A stretch of 64,000 nucleotides of DNA from Ascidiella aspersa. Its lineage: Eukaryota. The notes beneath the pieces were generated by a model that was not told the origin of the DNA, searched no databases, and saw only the letters and a program-made list of their open reading frames with translations. A program made the translations under genes and the position numbers. This document shows positions 47,501 through 52,894 of the stretch, in pieces; position 1 is the stretch's first letter, and every line of letters begins with the position of its first letter. The stretch is taken from contig OZ004609.1 in assembly GCA_963924565.1 (NCBI GenBank), positions 25,296,001 through 25,360,000 on the forward strand, given 5' to 3'.

Positions 47501-50500
47501 CGTTTAATATGAAGTTGTACCGTTAACAGCACTAATTTGAAAGCAGGGCAAGATATTTCAATGGAGCTATGCGTGCGTCCTGAATCATTAAAGTTGTAAG
47601 AAAAGCATGGTAATAGCTTAAATCAAGCAAAGAAAGCTTTCCTTATTTATTGTCGTGACAATGCGTCAACTAGGCATCGTGGTTAATCAATTAGTTTTGC
47701 CCTTAAAATCGACGCCCCAATACCCTTGCACCGCGATAAGATCATGACCGCAACTTTGAGCAAATCCGGTCTTTAGTACGACGCCTAATTGCGTTCACAT
47801 TGCAATAATTGCCAGATTAGCACGGATATATTGCCCGTAGCAGTCCTAAACGAGTATTCGAACTAACAGACAGGAAAACAGATTGTGGATTAAACCGATC
47901 AGCGAAATTTAAAGCCGACGACGCCGGGGCTTTATGGGTTACATTTCAATGGCTTTAGGCAGGCGCTAATCGCCTTTAAATTAGCGACGAGGGTGTTTAT
48001 TGCGACGACATTGAATTCCAGAGAATTGTCCGACGTGCTTGGTTGTATAGTGCGGTGTTTAATCGTGTATTTTAAGAAGTTAGTTCAAAACAGGGAAAAT
48101 TTAATAACGATTTTTTTAAAATAGCGTTGTGTAGCTTATAATCCATGCTTGTCATATAACGTTAAATATAATCATTATGACCGATTACACTAACGCTTTA
48201 GATCACAAAAGTTACAGTATAGCCCTGCTTTCGAGGCAGTTATCTTTCAAACGTTTTATTTAAACAGTTTTTACTAAAAATGCGGCACAAAACATTTCCC
48301 AAAAAAAGCTGAAAAACAACTTAAGCAGTAATTTGATCGAAAAAGCATAACGGGTATATCACGCTTTTCCACAAAAAGCAACAACCATTGACGAATAATG
48401 CGCTCACCGTTGAACAGCAGAGAAGTACGATAAAAAAAGATTGTAGGATGCCCGCTAGGCCGACGATCCAGCCAAGACGCACGAAGAGAATAACGCCCAG
48501 GATATTCTGCACGCACGGCAGGTACACCCCCATGATTGTGCTCATCTTGAATATCTGCGTCAAAATAAAAATATGATTTTCAGCGCTATTTTAAATAAAA
48601 TAAGAAATTAACGTTTGCACTTCAGATTAAAAATACTTTTCATGAATGACCAATTTAAAACGTAGTGAGTTCAATCTTACCTTAATGTAAAAGAAAAAAA
48701 ACTTACAGAATGGGCTGATAATGAACAAAAGCAACAGTTTAAATGAAATTTGAACAAAAGAAACTTGCCTGTGTTGTCTTTCCTTTTCCTTCTTCTTCCT
48801 TTTCGTGCTCCTTTGCACCTTGTGGTAAATTGGTGTAGTTTGCCAGCGCACCAAGTAGGGTAGCAACCCTTGGGCGTTCCTGCATCTCATCCTAGCACAA
48901 AACATATTGCTTTTACACTTCAAATAAATAACAATTAGGCTTCTATATGTCAATATACATGAAAAACTAGTGAAGAAAATAACCCGTACTTCGTAAAGGG
49001 CAAAGTGTCCTCCTGCCTCTGCATTGCCAGACTCTGGATCAACCAGGACCGATTTCTTCTTTCCATTGTCTGCAATAAAATATTATGTTACTTCTACATT
49101 AACAATGTGTTTTTGTGAAATATTTCTGCTATGTGCCAGCCAAAAACTTTATAACTAAACATGAAGATGTTTGAATAAATACACTAACTTACATGACAGC
49201 CTTCTGGTCAAAGATTTTAAAGAGGCCTTTCTACTGGTTGATGGTGCCGACTGGCGTCGTTCTAAAGCTTCTGGGGTACCAATTTCACTAACATCATCTG
49301 AAAATCGAACACCGCCCATAGGTAGCTCTTTATTTATACTAGACATTGCTTTGCTACATTTAACTGACTGAACTTTGTAATGTAAATAAAGCTACAAACA
49401 CCTTAAAAACAAAACTTAACTGTAAGAAGTTGGTCCGCTAAATAATTTTACTCATTTTCCAAAGTAACATAACCTATAGTTTCACCAAATTTAAAGAGAC
49501 CATTTTGAAAAACTAGTCTGTTCCAAATCTTATCACAGTAAAGTGATAGCCTGAAAGTACACCATGAATAGCCATTTAAACTGTAACACCAATGCTGTAT
49601 TGCCCCCATCCTCTTAGACTGGCCACTGCTTAATGGAACACACTGAGTCCTACCCAGCTGTTTAATATAAAGGCAGGCCTGAATTTTTTCACACTTTCCT
49701 GCACTCATTCTATGCACTCCCTGCTCTGACCTATGATTGCCCAATGCTCAGTCAGTGTGAGCATGGCAGCTATAAAAGAGAGGGACAGCCAGACACTCCC
49801 ACATAAGGGGTAAATAAGTCAGTGTGAATACACATACGAGCCAAAAGGCAATGGTATTCATTGGCGTTAAATCATGTGAATGTTTAAGAATTAAGTTCTT
49901 TGCAAATAATCAGCAATCAGATTCTAGTAAGTAAGATTTCTAGTTATGCTAATTAATATTGATAACAAAGCAGCAAAGAACTTCAACGTTTAAAATATCA
50001 AAGAAAATCAAGATTTTTGTGACCAGGTAATTAAAAATGAATGGTAAGTTGGAGAACACTGATATATGTATACATCGTTAGTAAATCAATTATACCGAGA
50101 AAATACCAAACAGTTGAATCGAAAAAATGGTAGTTTATTTGCAGAATACCAAATTACAAACAACTGTATTTTATAACAATTAACCTCACCAGCACAAACT
50201 AGTAAATTATTAAATTAATTTAGTGCAGTTCTAGTACAAAAACATATTTCCTGTTTTTTAATCAGTCAAGACGAGTCAGATTAAAAGGCAATAAACATGA
50301 CAACAGCTATTATTAATATACCAATGAGGATAGCCTTTTCTGAAGTTTCTGCTTTTCTTTTGACGAAAGAAACGGAAAAACCTGCAAAAAAACATTACAC
50401 CTAAATTAAGGTATTTATATTTCCTTTTTAAAATTTTATGCTTCAGATGTACACCGACACAATTTGTCTGCATATATATAATATTTAGGAAAAATTTTGT

Positions 50501-52894: not shown

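Follow-up and report, generated by a model that had tools for sequence, protein, structure and literature searches.

The window analysed here, a stretch of 64,000 nucleotides from Ascidiella aspersa, carries on its minus strand a KCC gene (SLC12A4-7 type) that extends from position 52894 to a stop codon at 26591. A V-ATPase d (C/AC39) subunit gene (about 57850-62020, minus strand), the last exon of which matches PF01992, lies upstream of the KCC gene, and the start of an S-adenosylhomocysteine hydrolase gene (63215-63400, plus strand; PF05221) is placed head to head with it. Directly downstream of the KCC gene is a WD40-repeat gene (about 18900-24040, minus strand) with weak Pfam hits, which we take to resemble LST8. 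For the 5' part of the KCC gene, a sequence-only reading had proposed three alternative ATG-initiated units, A (exons A1 and A2), B (exons B1 and B2), and C, each ending in phase 1 and able to splice to a common exon at 49069. The elements of the gene are listed below with the evidence on which each is based (X5 and X3 are RNA runs).

52815 to 52894, minus strand: exon A1, start A with its motif at 52882-52871 (sequence; A1-A2 joint; conservation)
52550 to 52650, minus strand: exon A2, an acidic linker with a phase-1 end in G (sequence; joint from A2 to 49297)
50768 to 50790, minus strand: unpaired acceptor-like site, 88 nt before the ATG of B (score 8.3, matched by about 8% of the region's 120-nt windows)
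50578 to 50680, minus strand: exon B1, start B with the conserved Y-E-x-(I/L) at 50632-50621 (sequence; B1-B2 joint)
50322 to 50381, minus strand: exon B2, the second exon of B, (R)FSVSFVKRK...EKAILI (joint from B2 to 49069; relatives)
49298 to 49346, minus strand: 5' portion private to C, the 16 codons beginning at its ATG (X5 depth; shuffle tests)
49193 to 49297, minus strand: internal exon C', 105 nt, phase 1-1 (joints A2 to 49297 and 49193 to 49069; conservation)
49259-49248, 49232-49221, and 49205-49194, minus strand: basophilic sites RRQS, RKAS, and RRLS in C' (sequence)
48990 to 49069, minus strand: first exon shared by all forms (sequence; RNA joints; tblastn)
26591 to 48891, minus strand: gene body to the stop codon (14 joined exons and ordered tblastn hits)

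The 14 exons from 49069 to 34985 could be joined without a stop codon, and the remainder of the body was traced from tblastn hits in order; the Phallusia KCC aligned with the window in 23 collinear tblastn segments. A search of the genome (309 Mb) with one membrane exon as the query gave one match from two candidates, namely the window itself, which is the sole KCC gene found in the genome. The closest homologues of one membrane exon were KCCs, with identities of 85-86% in Ciona, 76% in Clavelina, 75% in Phallusia, and 69% in Styela. In a 21-row tree of the membrane part, limited to tunicate and vertebrate KCCs, the window protein was sister to that of Phallusia (99/99) in an 8-row tunicate group (100/100) separated from 13 vertebrate KCCs. 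One row of this tree (P0056), tentatively labelled KCC4, grouped with KCC2 instead. The amino-acid-permease membrane domain (PF00324) scored above the cut-off in one exon, and the SLC12 C-terminal domain (PF03522) was found in one exon with an E value of 2e-5 and 24.2 bits, below the whole-protein cut-off of 27. A large extracellular loop with four cysteines and N-glycosylation sites is a mark of KCCs, and the window protein contains a loop of 131 residues with four cysteines and four sequons. The protein also has the motifs QNI, FYLG, and FFPSVTG, the N-terminal ANYTNLPQ, and the C-terminal YTYERT and MTWT; we take its cation-site, NYTNL, and regulatory-threonine motifs to correspond to the KCC3b residues numbered in PMC8280820. 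The large KCC extracellular loop has been placed between TM5 and TM6 (PMC11296322). By its domains, loop, motifs, and grouping with KCC orthologues, the predicted protein has the marks of a KCC, and electroneutral, swelling-activated K-Cl transport is predicted for it as a property of the class. A homologue search using the exon 48891-48769 as the query gave no new tunicate clusters. The intron at 48555-48768 (minus strand) is of the GC-AG type, as seen in one X5 read and an X3 contig.

All five exon segments of A, B, and C were found on the minus strand where they had been proposed. Each unit starts with ATG, is free of stop codons, and has a length of 1 mod 3 (181, 163, and 154 nt, respectively); the units have GT donors and AG acceptors and are in frame with the exon beginning at 49069. 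The predicted motifs, including RRLS, are likewise present, and the coordinates, phase-1 ends, and motifs of the sequence-only reading were all reproduced. The open frame of C runs from its in-frame ATG through an internal acceptor at 49297, and the final bases of its private part are the pyrimidine tract and AG of this acceptor. A scan of 49070-54500 for open units leading from an ATG to a donor in phase 1 found nine at six donors; four of the six donors in this 5.4-kb region are unrelated to the KCC gene, and the other two are those of B1 and C. Judged from the sequence alone, units A, B, and C are therefore within chance, and the real ones are credible because of their RNA joints and conservation.

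The stranded run X5, whose reads are on the minus strand, was read to about 6% and gave 62 reads on 48400-53500 and 53 on 48998-53497; all X5 counts come from this one shared sample of reads and are small. The joint between A1 and A2 was covered by 21 reads, that between A2 and the phase-1 AG acceptor inside C (49297) by six, and that between 49193 and 49069 by three. The A transcript is A1-A2-C'-common exon. Since the acceptor at 49297 is in phase 1, the A form combines RFTV with RRQS, RKAS, and RRLS, the full set of basophilic sites, within one protein. This result is at odds with the proposal that the three units are mutually exclusive. The joint between B1 and B2 was seen in one X5 read and in an X3 contig at a depth of 10.7, and that between B2 and 49069 in four X5 reads and in an X3 contig at a depth of 29.6. 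Exons of both B and C are thus present in transcripts, and the proposed splicing to 49069 was recovered for B2 and for C. The direct joint of A2 to 49069, which would skip C', had fewer than three X5 reads and no contig in the RNA runs examined, so that this part of the proposal was not recovered; the joint of A2 to B2 also had fewer than three X5 reads. There were 21 reads joining A1 to A2, yet only six leave A2 via a listed joint. The main X3 contig contains B as the only path into the common exon, which is only suggestive, as contigs register presence alone and no X3 contig covers A. Run X4 gave short pieces and no joints, and run X2 one unspliced contig.

Most isoforms of the relatives used for comparison are computed annotations. 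Starts of type A, MS(S/T)VRFTVTK, were found in Ciona intestinalis, Clavelina, Styela, and Phallusia, with a near match in a Logan protein (P0010), and starts of type B with RFxV in C. intestinalis (NP_001029002), C. savignyi, Clavelina, Styela, and a JGI cluster (P0008), three of the four long members of which have this start. The C tail follows A in C. intestinalis XP_078482258 and Clavelina RefSeq X1-X3 and is missing behind A in Ciona X1/X4, Clavelina X4, and Styela X1/X5; the annotations of the relatives therefore show both inclusion and skipping. Shuffle tests against relatives gave p<0.001 for window A and p 0.0002 for window B, each in all five comparisons, and p 0.0002 (Ciona), 0.0006 (Clavelina), and 0.03 (Styela) for the C tail. 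The private 16 residues of C gave p 0.06-0.51 in five comparisons, none of them significant, and the first residues of C gave p 0.076 against Styela X4. By these tests, conservation in other tunicates extends to A, to B, and to the 3' part of C. The conserved core of C' in the relatives is S-L-x-x-L-x-(R/K)-(R/K)-(L/F)-S, which fits PKA and also kinases reading L-x-R-x-x-S, and the 'PKA-type' regulation assigned earlier to this segment is one among several predicted basophilic-kinase readings.

The annotated ascidian KCC isoforms already deposited (Ciona NP_001029002, XP_009861591, and XP_078482258; Clavelina XP_076807870-75; Styela XP_039265925-28 and XP_077976194; and Phallusia CAB3266103) have the same A, B, and C-tail modules and combinations. 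Compared with these, the window species is distinguished by the three basophilic sites in C' and a private FENIA/YENIA repeat. A C. savignyi KCC clone was amplified with a primer at the B start (PMC10047359). With the RNA joints of A and B and the annotated proteins of the relatives, this clone bears out the earlier view that one KCC gene has alternative N-termini, of which A and B are real starts. The notochord phosphosite table of the same C. savignyi report lists four sites for this protein, S35, T995, S1039, and S1048, of which S35 falls in an A2-like region and T995 is the threonine of YERT; none of the four is in the basophilic cassette or on a tyrosine, and the database model is of the A type (PMC10047359), so that B peptides may have been beyond the reach of that search. 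The literature searched, with subscription papers mostly outside it, yielded no paper on ascidian KCC isoforms and nothing on the first exons of fly and worm KCC isoforms. In the protein set containing P0009 and P0145, Styela X2 has B1 joined to a different second exon with loss of RFSV, and in the JGI cluster there is an additional start unrelated to the first. The alternative second B exon of Styela had no match in the window.

The predicted docking motifs are RFTV on A and RFSV on B, and hence RFxV is present on both starts that have RNA support. RFxV and the CCT domain form a solved structural pair. RFx(V/I) binds the CCT domain of SPAK/OSR1 (PMC7606576), and the H/RFXV of KCC1 has been treated as an OSR1-binding motif (PMC8280820). 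The genome of the window species contains two near-identical CCT exons of the OSR1/SPAK type and one of the WNK type (three matches from five candidates). The two OSR1/SPAK-type exons (G000:C2:31094108-31094236 and 31175965-31176102; L003 and L002) have similar flanks and are 82 kb apart, and are either a tandem duplication or an uncollapsed haplotype. The arginine codon of RFSV is split: B1 ends with its C, and B2 begins with its GT. A2 ends in G, and a joint of A2 to B2 built from the window reads GFSV. Because the arginine needs the last base of B1, B2 would yield the docking motif on B transcripts only and GFSV behind A; the kinase-docking motif would depend on the preceding exon. The Phallusia protein consists of A followed by B2 and reads GFSV, and its glycine probably arises via a junction of the A2-B2 type.

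The layout of the gene resembles in part that of vertebrate KCC3 (SLC12A6), which has two first exons, 1a and 1b (PMC9301082), and a skippable exon 2 that holds the SPAK phosphosite Ser-96 (PMC3814743). As in KCC3, the common N-terminal exon is preceded by two starts and by an internal exon that keeps the frame and contains candidate phosphosites. Unlike exon 2 of KCC3 with its SPAK site Ser-96, however, C' encodes 35 residues and is basophilic. Comparison of C with eight vertebrate N-termini gave p 0.10-0.92, with no detectable similarity to any of the eight, and C' appears to be at most an analogue of KCC3 exon 2, not a detectable homologue. Start A resembled the KCC3a starts of fishes and amphibians, which contain SVRFTVT (p 0.005 and 0.012), and a newt KCC3b (p 0.010); this likeness concerns three of the eight vertebrate N-termini tested and a short match, and could instead reflect convergence on the docking motif. 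The gene is also like KCC2 (SLC12A5) in producing alternative N-termini from one gene, where KCC2a has RFxV/I and KCC2b is without it (PMC13694278). In contrast to KCC2a/b, both RNA-supported starts of the window gene have RFxV, and such a difference is absent unless C starts a transcript. With RFTV on A and RFSV on B, the choice between these two would not toggle docking in the manner of KCC2a/b.

The explanation that we favour, and consider probable, is that A and B are both expressed as starts of the gene, each with a predicted SPAK/OSR1 RFxV motif, and that C' is an internal, likely optional, phosphorylation cassette behind A. According to this explanation, the A and B forms would, like vertebrate KCCs, be held under WNK-SPAK/OSR1 inhibition via RFxV and the conserved threonines of the C-terminus, and would differ in their secondary inputs. 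The A form would have a basophilic-kinase segment, C', that can be included or skipped, and the Y-E-x-(I/L) on B would most likely serve membrane sorting or phosphotyrosine control. That C additionally starts a minor docking-less transcript seems to us plausible, if somewhat short of an even chance; a docking-less form would exist only in this case. The separate 5' coding exons of A and B are spliced and expressed, and may have separate promoters or arise by trans-splicing, which affects about half of the genes in Ciona (PMC4691747).

An alternative emphasis is that the N-termini chiefly set the membrane destination, with the tyrosine motif of B as an adaptor-complex sorting signal that A is without. 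Y-x-x-hydrophobic is the tyrosine sorting consensus. In B the motif is Y-E-(D/E/N)-(I/L), with Y and E invariant in all six B-type sequences and the fourth position always I or L. The survey of N-termini, in which 120 of 165 fetched proteins passed the anchor filter, found Y-E-x-(I/L) in ten of the 120, all from the tunicate clade. A profile search with B returned two cluster representatives among 4188 candidates, both from the tunicate clade, which is weak evidence from one search that start B has no match beyond this clade. The YEN tyrosine site of the sequence-only reading did not survive this comparison, as only the window species has FENIA and the N of YEN, the relatives have YED or YEE, and Y-x-N fails; what survives is Y-x-x-hydrophobic. 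The same residues of B also fit an acidic Src-family phosphotyrosine site, which weakens the case for sorting, and the RFxV on both starts suggests that kinase docking is apparently still selected. In other KCCs, N-terminal sequence has been linked to destination: residues 20-41 of C. elegans KCC-2 set basolateral targeting (PMC11296322), and KCC3a is apical in intercalated cells, while a basolateral proximal-tubule signal was attributed to KCC3b (PMC9301082). We regard membrane destination as the chief role of the N-termini as rather unlikely, although it is compatible with the exon layout of the favoured explanation.

The original proposal, in which three promoters produce exclusive N-termini with docking (A), tyrosine and docking (B), and PKA-type regulation without docking (C), fares worse, and we judge it improbable. 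The C-type segment does come first in Styela X4 and in one Clavelina gene model (CAK8684720), and the in-frame ATG of C with a frame open through the internal acceptor would permit such a start. The X5 depth is about 2x at 49448-49597, and an X3 contig at 49224-49468 is unspliced across 49297. This contig is one sign for a C start, but its depth of 4.5 is at background and does not stand out: six of the other seven X3 pieces listed, in introns or upstream at depths of 3-5.5, lie outside coding exons, and one overlaps half of B2. Against three exclusive starts, the X5 depth drops at the internal acceptor from 4.07 over 49148-49297 to 0.1 in the bin that holds the ATG of C (49298-49447), and A is spliced to the C tail in the six reads described above. 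The basophilic sites of C and its tail are conserved; its role as an ATG-initiated first exon was not confirmed, and its private 16 residues show no significant conservation. The assignment of one kinase module to each promoter fails, since both A and B carry RFxV and it is the A transcript that takes up the basophilic segment. The modules would remain non-exclusive even with some transcripts starting at C, and the three-way kinase switch is not supported.

A single upstream promoter, combined with alternative trans-splicing of a spliced leader to acceptors ahead of A, B, and C, is another arrangement to which we assign a low probability. It would suit the frequency of trans-splicing in Ciona (PMC4691747), the sharp fall of the X5 depth just upstream of the ATGs of A and B, and the acceptor-like site 88 nt upstream of the ATG of B. 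This site (50768-50790) is a possible but weak candidate for a trans-splice acceptor or a 5' UTR splice acceptor; the X5 depth is 0 above 50797, and the X3 contig containing B1 passes the site unspliced to 50857, which argues against its use. In addition, only B has an upstream acceptor that exceeds the regional background, the best scores within 120 nt being 0.9 for A and 3.9 for C, and no loose X5 ends were listed, though a short leader might escape the detection limits. Finally, low read counts and the chance ATG-donor units in the region could suggest that A is the single real start and that B and C arise as its leaky or neutral by-products, but this is scarcely credible: B is conserved in five further sequences, the X3 contig enters the common exon through B only, and conservation of the C tail extends to three other genera.

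A broader reading, which we put forward tentatively and think doubtful, is that the single tunicate KCC gene embodies a combinatorial docking code, in which A would derive from the ancestor of KCC3a exon 1a, the docking motif of B would be built at a junction, and C would serve both as a cassette and as a docking-less start. If this is true, the RFxV start is older than the vertebrate KCC duplications, and one gene covers by splicing the regulatory range of the four vertebrate KCC genes. The general design of alternative starts, RFxV, and a phospho-cassette is already known from vertebrate KCC2 and KCC3, and the relatives have these exons annotated, which makes the finding less surprising; what merits testing is the docking motif assembled at the junction and, on B, the conserved tyrosine motif. 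The analysis corrects the gene model and provides a compact test case for the organisation of the KCC N-terminus where a chordate has a single copy of the gene. Isoform-specific work would be direct in Ciona, a tractable animal in which a B-form clone has linked KCC to the formation of the notochord lumen (PMC10047359).

Sense reads of X5 on the minus strand were also found in introns, at 52298-52550 (depth 3.4) and 51398-51547 (depth 3.5), where no joint is listed, and six X5 reads lie at 52451, in the intron after A2. The possibility that the islands at 51398-51547 and 52298-52550 are repeats was rejected, as the genome search gave one match (single copy). They could represent untranslated 5' sequence of B, a retained intron, or an A transcript that ends early and would encode a short peptide with RFTV. 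Elsewhere in the window, two related repeat-rich elements (about 37540-38200 and 60600-61230) lie in introns and consist of short tandem units, apparently in opposite orientation as judged by eye; they are probably a small mobile element.
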